From: Escherichia coli
GTDB taxonomy: Bacteria; Pseudomonadota; Gammaproteobacteria; Enterobacterales; Enterobacteriaceae
Assembly: GCF_003334255.1 (NCBI RefSeq)
Contig: NZ_QOWU01000044.1
DNA: 46,463 bases
Strand: one strand, 5' to 3'
Shown here: positions 1 through 46,329 of the stretch, piece after piece
Numbering within the stretch: the stretch's first letter is position 1
Layout: each line of letters starts with the position of its first letter
Program-made: the position numbers and the translations under genes
The notes under the pieces: model-generated
The model's database searches: none
What the model was told of the DNA's origin: nothing
What the model saw: the letters and a program-made list of their open reading frames with translations, nothing else

Positions 1-77
1 AGCTGATAGAAACAGAAGCCACTGGAGCACCTCAAAAACACCATCATACACTAAATCAGTAAGTTGGCAGCATCACC
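1..77 (-). mobile_element. IS1 insertion sequence, terminal portion only (left inverted repeat plus start of insA region); element continues beyond window start
   Basis: Reverse complement of 1..77 reads GGTGATGCTGCCAACTTACTGATTTAGTGTATGATGGTGTTTTTGAGGTGCTCCAGTGGCTTCTGTTTCTATCAGCT, which matches the IS1 terminus as I remember it. The exact junction is ambiguous over ggtgat (71..77) because it overlaps ompF sequence. Confidence 0.85.
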
Positions 78-248
78 GTTTCCGCCGTAACTGTTTACAC
101 CATTGTCTTTAGAAAAATAATGCAGACCGACAGCTTTACCGTACAGATCTACTTTGTTGCCATCTTTGTTATAGATTTCTGCAGCGTTTGCAGTACCTGC
201 TACTAACAGAGCAGGGACGATCACTGCCAGAATATTGCGCTTCATCAT
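78..248 (-). pseudogene. ompF: ompF 5' fragment (signal peptide plus about 35 mature residues of outer membrane porin F), truncated by the IS1 insertion
   Basis: ORF 51..248 translates [47 protein letters not shown]..., the OmpF N-terminus. After GGNGD the frame runs into IS1 sequence (AANLLI then stop) instead of MTYARLGF. Confidence 0.85.
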
Positions 249-397
249 TATTTATTACCCTCATGGTTTTTTTTATGACACCTGCCACTGCCGTCAATAA
301 GTTCTGTCAATAAAAATTTACGGAACTATTGATGAGAGTTTGGTGTCTTTATGTGTCTGCAGGCATCTTTCCATTCAAACTAACGTTTCGCTACCGT

Positions 398-460
398 GAA
401 AGTGCTACAAAGATAAAGATTTGGTTTCAAAAAGAAAAAATATGTAACCAAAAGTAAAAT
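398..460 (-). promoter_or_regulatory. OmpR binding sites F1-F3 of the ompF promoter
   Basis: Reverse complement contains TTTACTTTTGGTTACATATT, TTTTCTTTTTGAAACCAAAT and CTTTATCTTTGTAGCACTTT, the tandem OmpR boxes upstream of ompF as I remember them. Confidence 0.75.
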
Positions 461-810
461 TTAAGGAACTTTGTGAACACCGTCATATTTCCATAGAAGC
501 GTGATGATATTTACAGCAATTTTTATCTATTTATATGATTTCCTTATATTTAAATTAACTAAACGGAAATTTTGTTTCTGATGGAAACTTTATCGACCTG
601 GCACTAAATCCTCGTTCAGACATCCAGAATGCCAAAAAATAGTATGAAAATTGTGCTATCAGCTAAGAAAAAACTAATCCGCAATAAGAATCCAGGTTAT
701 TTTTTGTGCGTAAATGTTGCAATGTAATATTCCATAACAGGATGATCGTTATGGCGGGGTTGCAAATAGATTGCTTGACTTAACAAACAGATAACTTGAC
801 AGAAAGGATA

Positions 811-835
811 AAAAAGAGCCAGCAGGCGCTGGCTC
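811..835 (-). terminator. Rho-independent terminator downstream of asnS
   Basis: Inverted repeat gagccagc / gctggctc with a 4-nt loop; the A-run at 811..815 is a U-run on the minus-strand transcript. Confidence 0.75.
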
Positions 836-849
836 TTTGAGGAAGAAAA

Positions 850-2250
850 TCAGAAGCTGGCGTTGCGCGGAGTACGTGGGAACGGAATCACATCACGCAC
901 GTTTTGCACGCCAGTTACGTAAGCAATCAGGCGTTCAAAACCAAGACCGAAACCTGAATGCGGAACAGTACCGTAGCGACGCAGATCGCGATACCACCAG
1001 TAATCTTCTTTATTCAGGCCCATTTCCAGCATACGCTCGTCCAGAACGTCCAGACGTTCTTCACGCTGGGAGCCACCAATGATCTCACCGATGCCCGGAG
1101 CCAGAACGTCCATAGCCGCAACGGTTTTACCGTCTTCGTTGAGGCGCATATAGAACGCTTTAATATCTTTCGGATAGTTTTTAACCACTACCGGTGCTTT
1201 AAAGTGTTCTTCCGCCAGATAACGCTCATGCTCAGAAGAGAGATCGACGCCCCAGTAAACCGGGTTTTCAAACTTCCTGCCGCAGTTTTCGAGAATGGTC
1301 ACTGCGTCGGTGTAATCCACCTGCGCGAAATCGGCCTCAATGAAGCGTTCCAGACGTGAAACGGCATCTTTATCTACGCGTTCAGCGAAGAATTTCATGT
1401 CGTCTGCGCGTTCTTCGAGAACCGCTTTGAAGACATATTTCAGCATGGCTTCAGCCAGACCCGCGATATCGTTCAGGTTAGCAAACGCCACTTCCGGCTC
1501 CAGCATCCAGAACTCCGCCAGGTGACGGCTGGTGTTGGAGTTTTCAGCACGGAAAGTCGGGCCGAAGGTATAAATTTTGGATAATGCGCAAGCGTAGGTT
1601 TCGCCGTTCAACTGGCCAGATACGGTCAGGAAAGACTCTTTACCAAAGAAGTCTTTGTCGAAATCCACTTTGCCCTGATCGTTACGCGGCAGATTTTCCA
1701 GATCCAGCGTAGAAACGCGGAACATTTCGCCAGCCCCTTCGGTATCAGACGCAGTAATCAGTGGCGTTGAAACCCAGAAGAATCCCTGCTCGTTAAAGAA
1801 GCGATGCAGCGCCTGCGCCAGCGTATGGCGAACGCGCGCGACGGCACCAATCAGGTTTGTGCGCGGACGCAGGTGAGCGACTTCACGCAGATACTCAATG
1901 CTGTGGCGTTTTGCCGCCATCGGGTAAGTGTCTGGATCTTCAACCCAACCAGCAACTTCAACCTTGCTGGCCTGAATTTCAAATTGTTGCCCCTGGCCCG
2001 GCGACGCCACGACTTTACCCGTCACAATGACCGAGCAACCGGTGGTCAGACGCAGGACGTCTTCATTGTAATTGGGCAGAGAATTATTGATGACAGCCTG
2101 TACAGGATCAAAGCAGGAACCGTCATAAACGGCGAGGAAGGAGATGCCAGCTTTTGAATCTCGGCGGGTACGTACCCATCCGCGTACGGTGACTTCGCTG
2201 TCAACGGCTACGCGGCCCTGGAGTACGTCGGCTACAGGCACAACGCTCAT
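850..2250 (-). CDS. asnS: Asparaginyl-tRNA synthetase
   Basis: Translation [25 protein letters not shown]...[11 protein letters not shown] (466 aa from the internal Met). The ORF-track start at 2295 is an upstream in-frame extension. Confidence 0.96.
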
Positions 2251-2418
2251 AATATTCTCTCTGTTAATAGTCGGAAAAAATAAACACTTGTCCACCCGTA
2301 AATGGGGGGATACCTATGTTACCTGGCATCTGCAATCAGACAAGCAGAATTCGCAAATGCAGCGAAAGATTTCGGAATTAAAGGTAAAAAAAGGGAGCCG
2401 ATTAGCTCCCTGATGATA

Positions 2419-3621
2419 TTAACTGGCTTTTTTAATATGCGGAAGGTCGAACGCTTTGCGCAGCGCCCGAACAAACGCTTTATCGTGGCAGATAGTTTTG
2501 CCAGGGCTGTCAGAAAGTTTCGCCACCGGTTTACCGTTACACTCTACCAACTTAATCACAATATTCAGGGGTTTTACCTGGGGGATATCGCAGGTCAGGC
2601 GAGTCCCAATACCAAAACTTAATTGCACGCGGGAAGAGAAGTGGCGGTATAGCTCAACCGCTTTGCGTAAATCCAGATTGTCAGAGAAAACCAGCGTTTT
2701 ACTCTGTGGATCAATTCCCAGCTTTTCATAATGTGCAATGGCTTTTTCACCCCATTCAACCGGGTCGCCAGAGTCATGACGCAGGCCCTGATACCGACTA
2801 GCGAACTCGACACCGAAATCACGCAGGAAAGCATCCATAGTGATGCAGTCGGTTAATGCAATGCCAAGTTGGTCGGGATACTCTTCCAGCCAGGCAGCAA
2901 GTGCAGCTCGCTGGCTGTTGGCTAGATCCGGGCTGATTTGCTGATGTGCCTGGAACCATTCGTGTGCCTGTGTTCCCATCGGCGTGAGGGAAAGCCGACG
3001 CGCCAGATCGTAGTTGCTGGTGCCCACAAACCAGGATTCCTGTTGCAGACGCTTAACGATGGTTTCTTGTACTTCGCGAGAAAAACGGCGACGGGTGCCA
3101 AAATCCATCAGATGGAAGCGCGACATATCAAGACCGGCGGTTAACGCCGAGAAGTCGACTAATTTGCTTTCCAGCGTGTCGAGGGCTTGCGCAACGTCGG
3201 CCTGCGGTGAGCGATAGCGATGTACCATTTCACTGATAACCGCCAGCAAAGGAACTTCCCAGAGGATGACTTCACGCCACGGGCCGCTTAAACGAATATC
3301 CAGCTTGCCATTATCGTTGGACACGGTGACTTGTTCCGGGTTAAAGCGGAACTCGCGTAACCAGTTAAGATAGTCGGCCTTAAAGAAAGGCAGGGCAGAA
3401 AGCCACTGATATTCATCATCCTGCAGGCGCAGGTGCTGCATCGCCTGAACCTGTTCACGAATAGCATCGGCATAAATACCCAGCAGATCGTCACCTCGGC
3501 AACGAAACTCCGCCGCGACATGCACATCGTAATAGTGATGAAACACGGCTTGCTGCATATGCAACTTATAAGCATCTGTATCCAGCAACGAGTGCAGAAC
3601 AGGAGAAGCGAATTGTGTCAT
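2419..3621 (-). CDS. pncB: Nicotinate phosphoribosyltransferase
   Basis: Translation [31 protein letters not shown]... (400 aa); true start is the internal Met of the 416-aa track ORF. Confidence 0.95.
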
Positions 3622-3650
3622 AGGTGCGCAGTAGCGTCCTCGTACAGGAG

Positions 3651-3668
3651 CGTTTAGTACAATAAACA
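3651..3668 (-). promoter_or_regulatory. Candidate NadR operator in the pncB promoter
   Basis: Inverted repeat cGTTTA-gtacaa-TAAACA lies 30-47 bp upstream of the pncB start. This resembles the TGTTTA-N6-TAAACA NAD box as I recall it; recognised from memory only. Confidence 0.45.
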
Positions 3669-3886
3669 TCTTCAGGAACTGCTGGAGTATACCTTGTTTC
3701 GCAATTTATTGAACCCCGATCACACCATATGCCACCTTTCTGGTCGATGGCATTACGCGGTGTATGTTATAAAAATGTAGCAATAAAGGCGTTTGTACCT
3801 GAAAAGATGAAGATTCTGCATAGCGCGATTTACGCAACAGGAATAGACTGAACACCAGACTCTATAAAAGATGCTAAAGGTTATTT

Positions 3887-6499
3887 ATGACTCAACAGCC
3901 ACAAGCCAAATACCGTCACGATTATCGTGCGCCGGATTACCAGATTACTGATATTGACTTGACCTTTGACCTCGACGCGCAAAAGACGGTCGTTACCGCG
4001 GTCAGCCAGGCTGTCCGTCATGGTGCATCAGATGCTCCCCTTCGTCTCAACGGCGAAGACCTCAAACTGGTTTCTGTTCATATTAATGATGAGCCGTGGA
4101 CCGCCTGGAAAGAAGAAGAGGGCGCACTGGTTATCAGTAATTTGCCGGAGCGTTTTACGCTTAAGATCATTAATGAAATAAGCCCGGCGGCGAATACCGC
4201 GCTGGAAGGGCTTTATCAGTCAGGCGATGCGCTTTGCACCCAGTGTGAAGCCGAAGGTTTCCGCCATATTACGTATTATCTCGACCGCCCGGACGTGCTG
4301 GCGCGTTTTACCACCAAAATTATTGCCGATAAAATCAAATATCCCTTCCTGCTTTCCAATGGTAACCGCGTTGCGCAAGGCGAACTGGAAAACGGACGCC
4401 ATTGGGTACAGTGGCAGGACCCGTTCCCGAAACCGTGCTACCTGTTTGCGCTGGTGGCAGGCGACTTTGATGTACTGCGCGATACCTTTACCACGCGTTC
4501 TGGTCGCGAAGTAGCACTGGAGCTGTACGTCGATCGCGGCAACCTTGATCGCGCGCCGTGGGCGATGACCTCGCTGAAAAACTCCATGAAATGGGATGAA
4601 GAACGCTTTGGCCTGGAGTATGACCTCGACATCTATATGATCGTCGCGGTGGATTTCTTCAATATGGGCGCAATGGAGAATAAGGGGCTGAATATCTTTA
4701 ACTCCAAATATGTGCTGGCCCGCACCGACACCGCCACCGACAAAGATTACCTCGATATTGAACGCGTTATCGGCCATGAATATTTCCATAACTGGACCGG
4801 TAACCGAGTGACCTGTCGCGACTGGTTCCAGCTCAGCCTGAAAGAAGGTTTAACCGTCTTCCGCGATCAGGAGTTCAGCTCTGACCTTGGTTCCCGCGCA
4901 GTTAACCGCATCAATAATGTACGCACCATGCGCGGATTGCAGTTTGCAGAAGACGCCAGCCCGATGGCGCACCCGATCCGCCCGGATATGGTCATTGAGA
5001 TGAACAACTTCTACACCCTGACCGTTTACGAGAAGGGCGCGGAAGTGATTCGCATGATCCACACCCTGCTTGGCGAAGAAAACTTCCAGAAAGGGATGCA
5101 GCTTTATTTCGAGCGTCATGATGGTAGTGCAGCGACCTGTGACGACTTTGTGCAGGCGATGGAAGATGCGTCGAATGTCGATCTCTCCCATTTCCGCGGT
5201 TGGTACAGCCAGTCCGGTACACCGATTGTGACCGTCAAAGACGACTACAATCCGGAAACCGAGCAGTACACCCTGACCATCAGCCAGCGCACGCCAGCCA
5301 CGCCGGATCAGGCAGAAAAACAGCCGCTGCATATTCCGTTTGCCATCGAACTGTATGATAACGAAGGCAAAGTGATCCCGTTGCAGAAAGGCGGTCATCC
5401 GGTGAATTCCGTGCTGAACGTCACTCAGGCGGAACAGACCTTTGTCTTTGATAATGTCTACTTCCAGCCGGTGCCTGCGCTGCTGTGCGAATTCTCTGCG
5501 CCAGTGAAACTGGAATATAAGTGGAGCGATCAGCAACTGACCTTCCTGATGCGTCATGCGCGTAATGATTTCTCCCGTTGGGATGCGGCGCAAAGTTTGC
5601 TGGCAACCTACATCAAGCTGAACGTCGCCCGTCATCAGCAAGGGCAGCCGCTGTCTCTGCCGGTGCATGTGGCCGACGCCTTCCGCGCGGTGCTGCTCGA
5701 TGAGAAGATTGACCCGGCACTGGCGGCAGAAATTCTGACTCTGCCATCCGTCAATGAAATGGCTGAACTGTTCGATATCATCGACCCGATTGCTATTGCC
5801 GAAGTACGCGAAGCACTCACTCGTACTCTGGCGACTGAACTGGCGGATGAGCTGCTGGCTATTTACAACGCGAATTACCAGAGCGAGTACCGCGTTGAGC
5901 ATGAAGATATTGCAAAACGCACTCTGCGTAATGCCTGTCTGCGCTTCCTTGCTTTTGGTGAAACGCATCTGGCTGATGTGCTGGTGAGCAAGCAGTTCCA
6001 TGAAGCGAACAATATGACCGATGCGCTGGCGGCGCTTTCTGCGGCGGTTGCCGCACAGCTGCCATGCCGTGACGCGCTGATGCAGGAGTACGACGACAAG
6101 TGGCATCAGGATGGTCTGGTGATGGATAAATGGTTTATCCTGCAAGCCACCAGCCCGGCGGCGAATGTGCTGGAGACGGTACGTGGTCTGTTGCAGCATC
6201 GCTCATTTACCATGAGCAACCCGAACCGTATTCGTTCGTTGATTGGCGCGTTTGCGGGCAGCAACCCGGCAGCGTTCCATGCCGACGATGGCAGTGGTTA
6301 CCAGTTCCTGGTGGAAATGCTTACCGACCTCAACAGCCGTAACCCGCAGGTGGCTTCACGTCTGATTGAACCGCTGATTCGCCTGAAACGTTACGATGCC
6401 AAACGTCAGGAGAAAATGCGCGCGGCGCTGGAGCAGTTGAAAGGGCTGGAAAATCTCTCTGGCGATCTGTACGAGAAGATAACTAAAGCACTGGCTTGA
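3887..6499 (+). CDS. pepN: Aminopeptidase N
   Basis: 870-aa ORF beginning MTQQPQAKYRHDYRAPDYQITDIDLTFDL, containing the HEYFHNWTG zinc-binding motif. Confidence 0.97.
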   Translation: MTQQPQAKYRHDYRAPDYQITDIDLTFDLDAQKTVVTAVSQAVRHGASDAPLRLNGEDLKLVSVHINDEPWTAWKEEEGALVISNLPERFTLKIINEISPAANTALEGLYQSGDALCTQCEAEGFRHITYYLDRPDVLARFTTKIIADKIKYPFLLSNGNRVAQGELENGRHWVQWQDPFPKPCYLFALVAGDFDVLRDTFTTRSGREVALELYVDRGNLDRAPWAMTSLKNSMKWDEERFGLEYDLDIYMIVAVDFFNMGAMENKGLNIFNSKYVLARTDTATDKDYLDIERVIGHEYFHNWTGNRVTCRDWFQLSLKEGLTVFRDQEFSSDLGSRAVNRINNVRTMRGLQFAEDASPMAHPIRPDMVIEMNNFYTLTVYEKGAEVIRMIHTLLGEENFQKGMQLYFERHDGSAATCDDFVQAMEDASNVDLSHFRGWYSQSGTPIVTVKDDYNPETEQYTLTISQRTPATPDQAEKQPLHIPFAIELYDNEGKVIPLQKGGHPVNSVLNVTQAEQTFVFDNVYFQPVPALLCEFSAPVKLEYKWSDQQLTFLMRHARNDFSRWDAAQSLLATYIKLNVARHQQGQPLSLPVHVADAFRAVLLDEKIDPALAAEILTLPSVNEMAELFDIIDPIAIAEVREALTRTLATELADELLAIYNANYQSEYRVEHEDIAKRTLRNACLRFLAFGETHLADVLVSKQFHEANNMTDALAALSAAVAAQLPCRDALMQEYDDKWHQDGLVMDKWFILQATSPAANVLETVRGLLQHRSFTMSNPNRIRSLIGAFAGSNPAAFHADDGSGYQFLVEMLTDLNSRNPQVASRLIEPLIRLKRYDAKRQEKMRAALEQLKGLENLSGDLYEKITKALA

Positions 6500-6506
6500 T
6501 AAATAA

Positions 6507-6536
6507 CCGAATGGCGGCAATAGCGCCGCCATTCGG
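6507..6536. terminator. Perfect 12-bp stem hairpin between convergent pepN and ssuB; likely bidirectional terminator
   Basis: ccgaatggcggc-aatagc-gccgccattcgg. The flanking T-run is weak and lies mainly on the minus-strand side. Confidence 0.5.
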
Positions 6537-6541
6537 GGAAT

Positions 6542-7309
6542 TTACCCCTGTTTTCTCAGGCGAGTTTCAGATTCACCACGTTGCATCACCCGTTGCAACA
6601 CCTCCGCTTCCAGCTCCGCTAATCGCACCGACCCTAATCGACGCGGACGGGGGATATCCACTGTCAAATCCAGACCAATTTTTCCCTCTTCAATTAACAG
6701 CACCCGGTCAGCCATCGCTACCGCTTCGCTCACATCATGCGTCACCAACAGTACGGTAAAGCCGTGCTCCTGCCAAAGTGACACAATCAAATCCTGCATC
6801 TCGAGTCGCGTTAAGGCGTCCAGCGCCCCGAGCGGTTCATCAAGCAACAATAATCCCGGTCGATGAATCAACGCTCTTGCCAGCGCCACTCGCTGTTTCT
6901 GCCCGCCAGAAAGTGCGGCAGGCCATTCCCCTGCGCGATTCTCCAGTCCTACCGCAGCCAACGCTCGACGTGCGGCATCGCGCCACTGGCCTTTAAGGCC
7001 TAACCCAACGTTATCAATCACCGATTTCCACGGTAGCAGACGCGCATCCTGAAACATCATTCGCGTGTCTTCCTGAATTTCAGCCAGCGGTGTGGTGCCC
7101 GCTAACACATCGCCTGCGGTTGGCGTTTCCAGACCTGCCAGCAGGCGCAGCAGGGTACTTTTGCCACCACCGCTGCGGCCCACCACCGCCACAAACTGAC
7201 CTGCCGGAATATGTAAATCCAGTTGGTTCAGGACGATATTTTCCGCGTAATGTTTGCTTACTGCATTGAGCAACAATGGCGTGCCCTGGTTCAGACGAGC
7301 AGTATTCAT
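6542..7309 (-). CDS. ssuB: Aliphatic sulfonate ABC transporter ATP-binding protein
   Basis: 255 aa with Walker [10 protein letters not shown] and ABC signature LSGGQKQR; sits in the ssu operon context. Confidence 0.95.
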
Positions 7310-8097
7310 ACCGTGGCCTCCTTCAAATGATAAGCCGGGTTCCAGCGCAACCAGAGGCGCTCTAACAGCTGCGCGCTGACGTCAGCCAGTTTGCCGAGCA
7401 GGGCGTAAAGAATAATAGCGACTACCACCACGTCCGTTTGCAAAAACTCCCGCGCATTCATCGCCAGATAACCAATGCCTGAATTGGCAGAAATGGTTTC
7501 GGCAACAATCAGCGTCAGCCACATCAGGCCCAACGCAAAACGCACGCCGACCATAATTGAGGGCAGGGCACCAGGCAGGATCACATGGATAAACAGCGGT
7601 ATGCCGGATAATCCATAGCTACGCGCCATCTCCACCAACCCGCGATCGATATTACGGATGCCATGCCAGGTGTTGATATAAATGGGGAATAGCGTACCGA
7701 GCGCCACCAGAAAGATTTTTGCGGATTCATCAATGCCAAACCACAAAATCACCAGCGGGATCAGCGCCAGATGCGGCACGTTGCGCAACATCTGAATTGA
7801 GGTATCCAGCAGCCGTTCTCCCCAGCGAGATAGCCCGCTAATCAGTCCCAAAATCAACCCCAGCGATCCGCCAATTGAAAAGCCAATCAGCGCCCGCCAG
7901 GAGCTGATCGCCAGATGCTGCCACAGTTCGCCGCTGGCGGAGAGCGTCCAGAACGCCGTCACCACTCCTTCCGGTGAAGGCAAAATACGCGTCGACAGCC
8001 AGCCAACCGAGGAGGCCAGTTGCCACACCGCCACGATGCCCACCGGTAAAAACCAGGGGGCAACGCGCAATAACCACTTCTTCACTGGCGTTGCCAT
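7306..8097 (-). CDS. ssuC: Aliphatic sulfonate ABC transporter permease
   Basis: Hydrophobic permease; start taken as [11 protein letters not shown] (263 aa); 4-bp overlap with ssuB. Confidence 0.92.
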
Positions 8098-8107
8098 TAT
8101 TTCTTCC

Positions 8108-9253
8108 TTAGCTTTGCGCGACTTTACGGGGGATAAAATCATTCGCCACCGCTTCGCCTTGCGGATTCAGCGGCTGCGGCTGGGGAATTTCCGGGATGGC
8201 GACATCCAGAAGCGGGAACAGCAACTCGCCAACCCGATACGCTTCTTCCAGATGCGGATAGCCCGAAAGCACAAAACTGTCGATGCCAAGCGCGGCATAT
8301 TCGTTGATTCGCGCAGCGACCGTAGGACCATCGCCCACCAGCGCCGTCCCGGCACCGCCGCGCACTAAGCCAACGCCCGCCCATAAATTGGGGCTGATCT
8401 CCAGATTGTCGCGCTTGCCGTTATGTAACGCCGCCATTCGCTGTTGCCCTACGGAATCCGTCCGGGCGAATGCGGCCTGTGCTTTGGCGATAGTTTCATC
8501 ATCAAGATGCGAGATTAACCGCTCGGCGGCCTGCCACGCTTCGTCGTTAGTTTCACGAACAATCACATGCAGACGAATACCGAAACGAATTTTGCGTCCA
8601 TGCGCGGCAGCTTTCGCCCGCACTTGTTCGATTTTCTCTTTAACCAGTTCCGGCGGTTCGCCCCAGGTGAGGTAGAGATCAACCTGTTCTGCCGCCAGCT
8701 CCTGGGCGACATCTGACGATCCGCCAAAGTAAAGTGGCGGATACGGCTGTTGAATCGCCGGGAAGAGCAGTTTTGCTCCGCGCACATGAATATGTTTACC
8801 GTTGAAATCGACGGTTTCTCTCTGCAATAAACGCCGCCAGACCTGGGTAAATTCCGCCGAGGCTTCGTAGCGCTCGCTATGATCAAGGAACACTCCGTCG
8901 CCTGCCAGCTCTTGTGGATCGCTGCCTGTGACCAGGTTAAACAACGCACGTCCATTTGAGAGACGGTCAAGCGTGGCGGCCTGGCGGGCGGCAACGGTAG
9001 GTGAGGTTACGCTGGGACGCAGGGCGACAAGAAACTTCAGCCGCTGCGTCACCGGGATCATCGATGCGGCAACCAGCCACGCATCTTCGCAGGAGCGCCC
9101 CGTTGGAATTAGCACACCGGTATAGCCAAGACGATCCGCCGCTTGCGCAATTTGTTGCAGATAACCGTGATCAACCGGGCGTGAACCTTCTTCCGTTCCC
9201 AGATAATGCCCGTCACCGTGGGTCGGTAAAAACCAGAACATATTCAGACTCAT
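8108..9253 (-). CDS. ssuD: FMNH2-dependent alkanesulfonate monooxygenase
   Basis: 381 aa, [23 protein letters not shown]...; luciferase-like monooxygenase family. Confidence 0.96.
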
Positions 9254-10209
9254 AATTGTTTTCCTTCCAGTTGAGTGGGCTGCCAGATGCGCTGGCGAAT
9301 ATCGACTTTTTTCGGCACCAGACGATTTTCATAAAACAGATCTGCCGTTTGCTGCTGTAAGGCGGCAACCTCGGCGTTAACCGGTTTGATGGTGGTAGGA
9401 GGGCGATGATCTAAGTAAGAGGCAATCACCGGTGCCGGTAAGCCCATCGTTTTTGCCAGTAAAGCGATGCTTTGCTCGCGCTGGCTGCGGGTTAACGCAT
9501 CGGCCTCACTAAAGGTTGCCAGTACGCCCTGAATAAAAGCGCCGTTTTTTTCTGCATAGGGACGAGCTGCCAGATAAAACGATCCAGTTTGATTGAGATC
9601 GGTGCCGTCTTTCAGCACCCGCACGCCGCCCTGTAATAATGCAGCAGAGTAGTAGGGATCCCAGATAGCCCAGGCGTCAACGTTACCTTGCTGGAACGCG
9701 GCGCGGGCATCAGCGGGCGTCAGGTAAGTGGGTTGGATATCGGTAAACTTAAGTCCGGCCTGACGCAGTGCACGCAGTAAAAGGTTGTGTGAACTGGAAC
9801 CTTTCTGAAAGGCAACTTTGTGACCTTTAAGATCGGCTACGGTTTTGATCGGGCTGTTTTCTGCCACCAGAATCACTTCGGCTTTGGGCTTCGGTGGCTC
9901 GACGCCCACGTACACCAAATCAGCCCCGGCAGCCTGGGCAAAGATTGGCGGAATATCCCCGGTACTGCCGAGATCAATACTGCCAACGTTTAACGCTTCC
10001 AACATTTGCGGACCCGCGGGGAACTCCACCCAGGAGATTTTTGATTCCGGATAGCGTTTTTCCAGTAACTGGTGGCTTTTTGCCAGCACCATACCAATAC
10101 TGCCTTTCTGATAGCCTATACGTAACGCTTCAGGCGAGGATTCTGCAGCAACCGCAAAAGTAGAGACGCTAAGCAATCCCGCCAGCGCCAGTTTAATGAT
10201 GTTACGCAT
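9250..10209 (-). CDS. ssuA: Aliphatic sulfonate periplasmic binding protein
   Basis: Start at [22 protein letters not shown] (signal peptide), 319 aa; its start overlaps the ssuE stop by 8 nt. Confidence 0.93.
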
Positions 10210-10777
10210 GGGCATTACCTCGCAGAGACAGAAGGTCAGGAACCTGAACATCGCGGCGGTGCAATGCCTGCCAGAAAGTTTCTAGCGCGGTATCAAGACG
10301 GGTTTGCAGATTTGGCGTGAACTGGGGTCTGTGATGGTAATCAATTACTTGTGAGTCATCGGCAAACACGCCGTGCAGGATCTCCTGAGCTTTCAGTGCG
10401 CTTAAAACTGGTTTAAGGGCATAATCGACCGCCAGCAGATGGGCCACGGTACCGCCCGTCGCCAGCGGTAGCACCACTTTGCCTTGCAAAGCGCGTTCTG
10501 GCAGCAGGTCGAGCAGGGTTTTCAACGCACCGGAATAGGCGGCTTTATACACAGGCGTGGCGACAATCAGCCCATCGGCCTGTTGCAGCTGTTCGGTGAA
10601 GGTCTTGAGTGCCGGACTATCGAAACGAGCATAAAGTAGATCTTCCGGGGCGAAGTTTTGCAGATTCCAGTGATAAACCTCTACATCCAGGCCATTTAGT
10701 TTTTCCCGCGCATATTCCAGCAAGGAGCTGGAGCGAGAAGGAAAGCGAGGACTACCCGCCAGGGTGATGACACGCAT
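10202..10777 (-). CDS. ssuE: NADPH-dependent FMN reductase
   Basis: 191 aa, MRVITLAGSPRFPSRSSSLLEYAREKL...; first gene of ssuEADCB. Confidence 0.95.
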   Translation of the reverse strand: MRVITLAGSPRFPSRSSSLLEYAREKLNGLDVEVYHWNLQNFAPEDLLYARFDSPALKTFTEQLQQADGLIVATPVYKAAYSGALKTLLDLLPERALQGKVVLPLATGGTVAHLLAVDYALKPVLSALKAQEILHGVFADDSQVIDYHHRPQFTPNLQTRLDTALETFWQALHRRDVQVPDLLSLRGNAHA

Positions 10778-45089: not shown

Positions 45090-46109
45090 CTACTTGCTAA
45101 CCACGAGCGGCAGATCCAGTGTTGGTGTGATTTTTGTTTTACGATCGTAAATCAACACCTGATTTTCTGTTTTATGCCCGCTGAAAATTTGTTTGTCGCG
45201 ACTGCTGCCTTCGTAATCTGAGATCCCCTTGGCTTTTATGTCGTGAAAATTGCACCCGAACGGAACGCCAACTTTTTGCTCGGCTGAGCGTTTAGCCTGA
45301 TTCCACCAGTTGTTCAGCGTTTTAGCTATGACTTTCCCGCCTTTGGTTGTATTGATCACATATTCGCATGTACAGGAAGATACATTTCGGGCTAACTGGA
45401 TCGCTGTACGTAATCGCGGTGACCATTCCTTGATTTGTTTGGTGCCGGTTTTGTTTTGCTCAATGTAGATCCCTTTATCCATAATATCCTGCCATTTCAA
45501 CTCAAGCACATCACCGAGCCTTGCCGCACAGAGATAGGAAATCTCCATTGCAATGCGTAACTGTGGAATTGCTTCCGCATATATCGCTGCATACTGTTCA
45601 TCGGTGATGTAAACAGTGCGGGCTTTAAGAGAGAATTTTCTGACTCCTTTACATGGGTTATTCTTCACGTATCCACGCTCATATCCCCACCCGTATACTC
45701 GACTCAGGCTTGCCAGTTCATGATTTGCCTGGGTCTTGCTCTCAAGCCCTCGTTTATCCATGAAAATTCTTACCTGCTCAGTTTTGACATTATCAGCAAG
45801 CACTTTTCCGAATACCATCAGCAACGCCTTCTGATGTTGTCGATAATCTTTTTGGGTTCGGGGGGCCAGTTCTGTAAATGCAGGGGAGTCCATAAACATG
45901 TGCCATAATTTAGCTACGGTCATTATGTTGTGGAGTTTTGCTTTTTCCAGTTCATAATTTTGCCAGACTTTAGCTACGCTGGTTTTCCGCACTCTTCCTA
46001 GCCCTATAGTTCTTGTACTTCCTTCTGGTTTCCACACGTAACTGTAACCATTCGATCTAACCCGCGGTGGCAGTACATTATCTTTTTTATTTTTTCTTGG
46101 TCTTCCCAT
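45090..46109 (-). CDS. int: Phage tyrosine integrase (lambda Int family)
   Basis: 339 aa; N-terminal MGRPRKNKKDNVLPPRV resembles the lambda Int arm-binding N-terminus; C-terminal region has an R...H..R...Y catalytic pattern (LGDVLELKW, HDIKAKG, SGHKTENQVLIYDR). Confidence 0.92.
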   Translation of the reverse strand: MGRPRKNKKDNVLPPRVRSNGYSYVWKPEGSTRTIGLGRVRKTSVAKVWQNYELEKAKLHNIMTVAKLWHMFMDSPAFTELAPRTQKDYRQHQKALLMVFGKVLADNVKTEQVRIFMDKRGLESKTQANHELASLSRVYGWGYERGYVKNNPCKGVRKFSLKARTVYITDEQYAAIYAEAIPQLRIAMEISYLCAARLGDVLELKWQDIMDKGIYIEQNKTGTKQIKEWSPRLRTAIQLARNVSSCTCEYVINTTKGGKVIAKTLNNWWNQAKRSAEQKVGVPFGCNFHDIKAKGISDYEGSSRDKQIFSGHKTENQVLIYDRKTKITPTLDLPLVVSK

Positions 46110-46329
46110 TGTTCAGTGCCTCAAAATCGGGTTCAGCAGAAACCAGTTCAGATGTTTTTGGCATCGTTGTCAGTCCGTGTGGAATATCCCTGCGTAGAAC
46201 TATTGGTTCGTTTTTAGGACCGATTACAAATGGGATGCCGTGCAGTCTTAACTGGTGTTGCTGTTTTGTGTATCGCTCGTATTTCGTGATCTCTTTAATC
46301 TCTGCTGGAGATAGAGTTAATTCGTACAT
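46087..46329 (-). CDS. xis: Excisionase-like protein
   Basis: 80 aa, MYELTLSPAEIKEI...NNGKTKKK; sits upstream of int and overlaps its start by 23 nt as in lambda xis-int; loosely lambda Xis-like at both termini. Confidence 0.65.
   Translation of the reverse strand: MYELTLSPAEIKEITKYERYTKQQHQLRLHGIPFVIGPKNEPIVLRRDIPHGLTTMPKTSELVSAEPDFEALNNGKTKKK

Follow-up and report, generated by a model that had tools for sequence, protein, structure and literature searches.

A probable single IS1 insertion in chromosomal ompF of an Escherichia coli strain predicted to lack the OmpF porin

The beginning of the window (the whole stretch of 46,463 nt of E. coli DNA that was analysed) holds the 5' part of the porin gene ompF next to a piece of IS1, and the question is whether this arrangement is a true transposition event and what it leaves of OmpF. 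IS1 measures about 768 bp and carries insA and insB', from which a programmed -1 frameshift yields the InsAB' transposase, and its insertion duplicates 8-9 bp of the target. The best explanation, to which a probability of about 0.92 is given, is that one IS1 copy inserted into the chromosomal ompF gene with a 9-bp duplication, in a strain predicted to make no OmpF.

The ompF-IS1 junction and its chromosomal context

The following features of the window, all on the minus strand, describe the junction:

1..22 (-): start of insA, GTG GCT TCT GTT TCT ATC AGC T..., incomplete at the window edge; read directly, and equivalent in position to the 5' end of the IS1 transposase CDS annotated in strain MB51
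1..77 (-): IS1 nt 1-77, cut by the window start, insA and ompF being co-directional; 77/77 nt shared with a 768-bp IS1A-type copy in MB51
55..77 (-): left terminal inverted repeat of IS1, 23 bp, GGTGATGCTGCCAACTTACTGAT, read directly
78..86 (-): GGCGGAAAC, ompF nt 163-171, the left-hand copy of the duplicated target; the same 9 bp follow the IS1 right end on contig 60 of a public assembly (see below)
78..248 (-): ompF codons 1-57, comprising the signal peptide (22 aa) and 35 mature residues; 171/171 nt shared with JP538 and G1/2; RefSeq homologue porin OmpF, WP_000977906.1
51..248 (-): chimeric ORF of 65 aa, OmpF residues 1-57 followed by GDAANLLI from the IS1 inverted repeat, from the ORF list and its translation
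249..849 (-): asnS-ompF intergenic region, unchanged; the asnS ORF ends at 850

When the minus strand is read from position 248, the sequence opens with ATGATGAAGCGCAAT and stays in frame down to AGTTACGGCGGAAAC at position 78. By direct reading, window 248..78 corresponds to ompF nt 1-171 (codons 1-57), starting with ATGATGAAGCGC and ending with TACGGCGGAAAC, and these codons are all that remains of ompF on the window side of IS1. Each of the 171 nt is the same in the ompF genes of E. coli JP538 and G1/2, which are annotated and intact (WP_000977906.1), and identity ends at nt 171, in agreement with the preliminary description, which had placed the interruption after about codon 57. Over the junction, the intact allele reads GGA AAC GGC GAC AAA ACT versus GGA AAC GGT GAT GCT GCC in the window; the two diverge after nt 171 and thus the ompF-derived sequence ends at that nucleotide, with codon 57. 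G58 and D59 are supplied anew by the first six bases of the IS1 inverted repeat (GGTGAT in IS1 versus GGCGAC in ompF), and the apparent continuity of "GD" across the junction is a coincidence of these two hexamers. The earlier reading of an ompF frame running from 248 through GGNGD into IS1 was therefore right with regard to the junction with IS1, whereas its last two residues, GD, are encoded by the IS1 tip, ompF itself ending at codon 57.

The identity of the gene is established by both sequence and locus, since codons 1-57 are those of WP_000977906.1 and the next genes are asnS, pncB and pepN in native order, followed by ssu, elf and others, all of them in the order native to E. coli. The intergenic stretch 249..849 presumably contains the ompF promoter and regulatory region with its OmpR sites and the 5' UTR.

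From position 77 downward, the window (GGTGATGCTGCCAACTTACTGATTTAGTG / GGTGATGCTGCCAACTTACTGATTTAGTGTATGATGG) is the left end of IS1. The alignment of 1..77 with an IS1 reference, suggested in the preliminary description, gave a match of 77/77 to the left end of the complete 768-bp IS1 of MB51 (BLAST E=2.5e-35), and a 76-nt IS1 pattern was found once in the window with 0 mismatches (0 matches expected from 100 shuffles). The 23-mer GGTGATGCTGCCAACTTACTGAT also bounds seven complete IS1 copies adjoining or within ompF in complete genomes. Of the two terminal inverted repeats of about 23 bp that belong to the IS1 family, the left one is in the window and the right one is found only on contig 60 of assembly GCA_965136505.1. 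The GTG in window 1..22 is taken to be the insA start, and the first 7 codons of the gene are included in the window.

Outside the junction the locus appears unaltered. Window 78..7000 is gap-free and 100% identical to G1/2, in which ompF is intact, and the window is identical to JP538 over the 3,625 nt compared. Over window 78..22000, identity to the chromosomes of G1/2, G6/7, G8, B-1109 and JP538 is 100%, and ompF is intact in G1/2 and JP538, the two that were inspected. Because strains identical over 22 kb have an intact ompF, the insertion is recent; on this background it happened very recently, and nothing else at the ompF locus has changed.

The position of the window start inside IS1 looks like a repeat-induced contig break, since short-read assemblers break contigs at multi-copy repeats; the 77-nt IS1 overhang would have the size of a common assembler k-mer. 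Both window ends lie in sequence of repeated type, a multi-copy IS at one and lambdoid prophage genes at the other, which fits a contig built from short reads. The right end (about 45090-46463, minus strand) consists of a prophage adjoining yccA, assigned by homology to SW070917:

about 45090-46109 (-): tyrosine integrase of a lambdoid prophage
about 46087-46329 (-): DUF4224 gene, after which an exonuclease gene starts

A search for a tRNA gene between yccA and the prophage integrase found none. This prophage end of the window is probably a second repeat-induced contig break.

The right side of the insertion and competing readings

In order to reach the right side of the insertion, the products that a gene caller would report for the ompF 3' half were predicted and then looked up. 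A GTG-start candidate of 237 aa proved to be public (CAM3162098.1, CUK11517.1) and was located on contig 60 of GCA_965136505.1; two further candidates, one starting at an ATG (227 aa) and one at a TTG within IS1 (312 aa), were looked up as well and were not on record. Contig 40 of the same assembly (46,550 nt, compared with 46,463 nt for the window) shows 0 mismatches to the window over the 6,000 nt compared and includes the first 120 nt of IS1. What is described here of the IS1 right end and the ompF 3' half is read from this public assembly, which agrees perfectly with the window over 6 kb yet may represent another genome.

The first 127 nt of contig 60 are the right end of IS1, and the first ORF called on the contig matches PF03400 (DDE_Tnp_IS1). 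After IS1 it reads GGCGGAAAC GGCGACAAAACTTAT, that is ompF nt 163-171 once again and then nt 172-1089, and beyond ompF it continues with aspC, in its native position downstream of the ompF 3' half, then gloC and onward to mukB in native order. Since GGCGGAAAC stands before the IS1 left end in the window and contig 40, and after the IS1 right end on contig 60, it constitutes a 9-bp target-site duplication; this falls within the 8-9 bp expected for IS1, with the right-hand copy taken from the matching public assembly and not from the window. When IS1 and one copy of GGCGGAAAC were removed in silico, 1089/1089 nt were those of the intact ompF of JP538 and G1/2.

The preliminary description had proposed extending the sequence leftward and had expected a full 768-bp IS1, a target-site duplication and the rest of ompF. 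By way of GCA_965136505.1 the duplication and the remainder of the gene were recovered, while the full-length IS1 body is deduced: nt 1-77 are in the window, nt 1-120 on contig 40 and the last 127 nt on contig 60, the interior being in no junction-bearing record. We infer that one complete 768-bp IS1 joins both junctions. By a classical transposition, IS1 entered ompF between nt 171 and 172 (codons 57/58), duplicating GGCGGAAAC and with insA co-directional with ompF. The gene is presumably single-copy in the strain.

Three other readings of these junctions have to be weighed. It could be argued that the assembly is chimeric, with an IS1 end wrongly joined to a contig end and ompF actually intact, given that the IS1 segment is at the very end of the window and that its 77 nt would be typical of a k-mer overhang. 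The same junction is nevertheless present in independent assemblies, made with other assemblers, whose overhangs differ (120 nt for the NCBI assembly, 29 nt and 25 nt for Logan contigs of other runs), and it has a complementary right-end junction with the matching 9-bp duplication, whereas a random chimera would neither create a duplication nor restore ompF exactly on excision. The probability of such an artefact is considered next to negligible. A loss of the ompF 3' part, and maybe of aspC, through an IS1-adjacent deletion in the genome of the window, the matching assembly then being a different isolate, is judged highly improbable. IS1 does promote adjacent deletions, and the window is silent on anything to the left of IS1 nt 77; against this, the window has 0/6,000 mismatches to the very assembly that holds the right junction and a perfect duplication, contig 40 is almost as long as the window, and the deletion would destroy the duplication present in GCA_965136505.1.

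The remaining reading concerns what lies between the two junctions. Every junction-bearing assembly breaks within IS1 and its interior is unobserved, so that a composite IS1-flanked transposon (Tn9-like) might occupy the site; with direct IS1 copies, its outer junctions and its 9-bp duplication would look just like those observed. Alternatively, a later IS1-IS1 recombination (inversion or translocation) might have separated the ompF halves, the many IS1 copies of E. coli being recombination substrates (a query that includes the 77-nt IS1 end matches at a median of 10 places per genome). In either case ompF would be disrupted. Simple insertion is by far the commonest outcome of IS1 transposition, however, all seven of the IS1 events inspected at ompF in complete genomes are single elements of 767-768 bp, and gene order is native on both flanks (asnS-pncB-pepN on one and aspC-gloC...mukB on the other). 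A composite or rearranged structure is consequently judged improbable, and a single inserted IS1 is retained as the explanation. More generally, short-read contigs that end in a few dozen IS bases often mark real insertions, and a different contig can then yield the partner junction.

Predicted consequences for OmpF

The chimeric ORF at 51..248 ends, as first described, with AANLLI and a stop, the latter being a TAG at 53..51 of the minus strand. Its product is composed of the signal peptide, which we take to be 22 aa long, 35 mature OmpF residues and 8 residues encoded by IS1; the earlier statement that the signal peptide and about 35 mature residues are all that is left of OmpF here is borne out, with the IS1-encoded tail in addition. 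This 65-aa chimera is already public (CAM3068936.1 and CUK10187.1) and was also found on 7 contigs, all ending inside IS1.

The full mature OmpF chain has about 340 residues and forms a 16-stranded beta-barrel, and at this locus 35 mature residues are followed by the IS1 tail and a stop. A 57-residue N-terminal fragment of OmpF is unable to form a 16-stranded barrel, and the earlier claim that no functional OmpF barrel can be made from the locus holds. With the ompF promoter and translation start untouched, the 65-aa pre-peptide could still be made, and the barrel could not. On the other side of IS1, the 3' part of ompF would have neither a promoter-proximal start nor a signal peptide. From an N-terminal stub without a barrel and a 3' fragment without a signal peptide, it is therefore predicted that the strain is without OmpF. 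As far as can be judged from sequence, the locus is to be regarded as an ompF pseudogene with no function as a porin, and in annotation the ompF of this strain would best be called a pseudogene.

The expected phenotype would be a lower entry of small hydrophilic beta-lactams and an insensitivity to OmpF-dependent colicins and phages. Loss of OmpF can raise beta-lactam MICs, above all in strains that also have an ESBL or AmpC enzyme or have lost OmpC, and it can deprive OmpF-dependent colicins and phages of their receptor or translocator.

The nt-171 junction in another lineage and other lesions at ompF

The ompF nt-171/IS1 junction was absent from 5,426 complete E. coli genomes, in which the best full-length matches have IS1 elsewhere. 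It was found, with the same ompF nt 171/IS1 left-end boundary and in the same orientation, on contig 41 (6001-6200) of the Logan assembly of SRR36319702, which belongs to another lineage. The 6.2-kb flank of this contig has 97.7% identity to the window, with 142 differing alignment positions (2.3% divergent), the last difference being 200 nt upstream of the ATG. Many complete genomes of its own lineage match this flank at 100% identity over 6,171 nt, and the ten uninterrupted top matches to it are annotated as porin OmpF. In strain 631, which is of this lineage, the ompF allele is markedly different in its 3' part (357 aa vs 362 aa). The native 232-aa 3' fragment of that lineage is found in 164 blocks of the collection, SRR36319702 not being among the ten longest contigs listed.

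These observations raise the tentative suggestion, held at slightly less than even odds, that nt 171/172 is a recurrent target of IS1, which would have entered at this very base, and in one orientation, by separate events in at least two E. coli lineages. If true, it would represent convergent loss of OmpF at the nucleotide level under selection. The likeness of the right flank of the target, GGCGAC, to the IS1 tip, GGTGAT, may favour IS1 targeting at this point. As an alternative to independent hits, an already disrupted ompF allele could have been imported horizontally into the lineage of SRR36319702.

At other positions, IS1 was found in or upstream of ompF in at least 8 complete E. coli genomes. 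The complete-genome search joined same-strand pieces only, and IS1 insertions of opposite orientation would not rank in it; for this reason, the common orientation of the comparator copies was rejected as evidence of an orientation bias. In the seven complete genomes inspected, the IS1 copies are 767-768 bp long, have 8-9-bp duplications and are located within or just upstream of ompF. Three of them have IS1 inside the ompF CDS:

MB51 (NZ_CP073946.1): IS1 after nt 149, same orientation, duplication GGGTAACGG, 22 bp upstream of the nt-171 site
isolateA (NZ_CP135502.1): IS1 after nt 498, same orientation
PK5 (NZ_CP074024.1): IS1 after nt 840, same orientation

MB51, isolateA and PK5 resemble the window in having a 768-bp IS1 in ompF in the same orientation with a 9-bp duplication, but differ from it (nt 171) in their insertion points and ompF alleles. 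In each of them ompF is annotated as two pseudogene fragments. In ST12468, CUVET16-394, EC25 and ET734, IS1 is 35-112 bp upstream of the ATG and the ompF CDS is intact. These four are like the window in having IS1 at the ompF locus, with OmpF likely reduced; they are unlike it in that IS1 is in the promoter or 5' UTR and the CDS is whole, whereas in the window the CDS itself is broken, which makes an unambiguous null.

ST12468 appears to be isolate MB3825A of a study of carbapenem-non-susceptible bloodstream isolates, in which its ompF lesion is given as "IS1A 101 bp +1 ATG" (PMC9601100). An intragenic interpretation of this description was rejected, as the genome record shows IS1 101 bp upstream of an intact CDS. 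In the same study, ompC or ompF lesions were present in 18/19 non-carbapenemase-producing resistant E. coli (PMC9601100), and a survey of mobile-element insertions in clinical E. coli identified ompF as a replicated hotspot, hit recurrently across isolate collections and statistically linked to meropenem resistance (bioRxiv 10.1101/527788); the latter work covers the same general phenomenon as the present locus, but as a population-level description. Another paper (PMC10885879) holds no statement on IS1 and ompF, the matches to "IS1" in it being IS10R and IS102. Insertion of IS1 is a real, ordinary and well-documented route by which E. coli loses OmpF and becomes less permeable to some antibiotics, colicins and phages. 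The exact nt-171 allele is new only trivially, because no complete genome has the junction and the allele is already in public assemblies. No new biology is involved, IS-mediated porin loss being textbook knowledge and widely catalogued in clinical E. coli.

Lesions other than IS1 were also encountered near the same point of ompF. On a 5.2-Mb contig of GCA_964042055.1 (locus 3001-3300), and also in ERR4036171, ompF is interrupted after nt 177 by a Mu-type prophage, just 6 nt away from the point of IS1 entry. The prophage end has the sequence TGAAGCGGCGCACGAAAAACGCG, beyond which lie com and mom genes and tail genes, and the insertion leaves a 59-aa OmpF stub. In GCA_030474675.1 (3001-3180), a nonsense change of ompF codon 60 (AAA to TAA) leads to the same 59-aa product. 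The OmpF fragment of these Mu-type and K60 lesions, 59 aa versus 57 native plus 8 residues in the window, is of nearly equal length, but its cause is not IS1. A 59-aa product ending in GGNGD (P0018) was considered as a shortened form of the IS1 junction and rejected, since its sources are the Mu-type prophage, the K60 nonsense change and contigs that break off after the native GGCGAC.

The 65-aa chimera belongs to a cluster of 179 truncated N-terminal OmpF products. In the 164 collection blocks mentioned above, the 357-aa ompF allele is represented by its 232-aa 3' fragment, which stands behind 5' fragments of many lengths (67-119 aa in the ten assemblies and metagenome scaffolds listed). So many truncated products and 3' fragments imply that ompF pseudogenes are commonplace, and pseudogenes made by frameshift or nonsense changes appear to be very frequent in the lineages of the 357-aa allele. 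On the ENA metagenome scaffold GUYA17-1 (2041 nt), a 237-aa 3' fragment of the JP538-type allele is accompanied by the ompF upstream region, with IS1 absent, which implies a different internal lesion of this allele.

In strain 631 (NZ_CP040263.1, locus 8406-11280), and also in H61 (JCH8249), an ISEcp1-blaCTX-M-14 unit and the remnant of an IS5-family transposase are found between asnS and ompF. A resistance gene has thereby come to lie within the regulatory region of ompF in these strains, immediately ahead of an ompF CDS that is intact.
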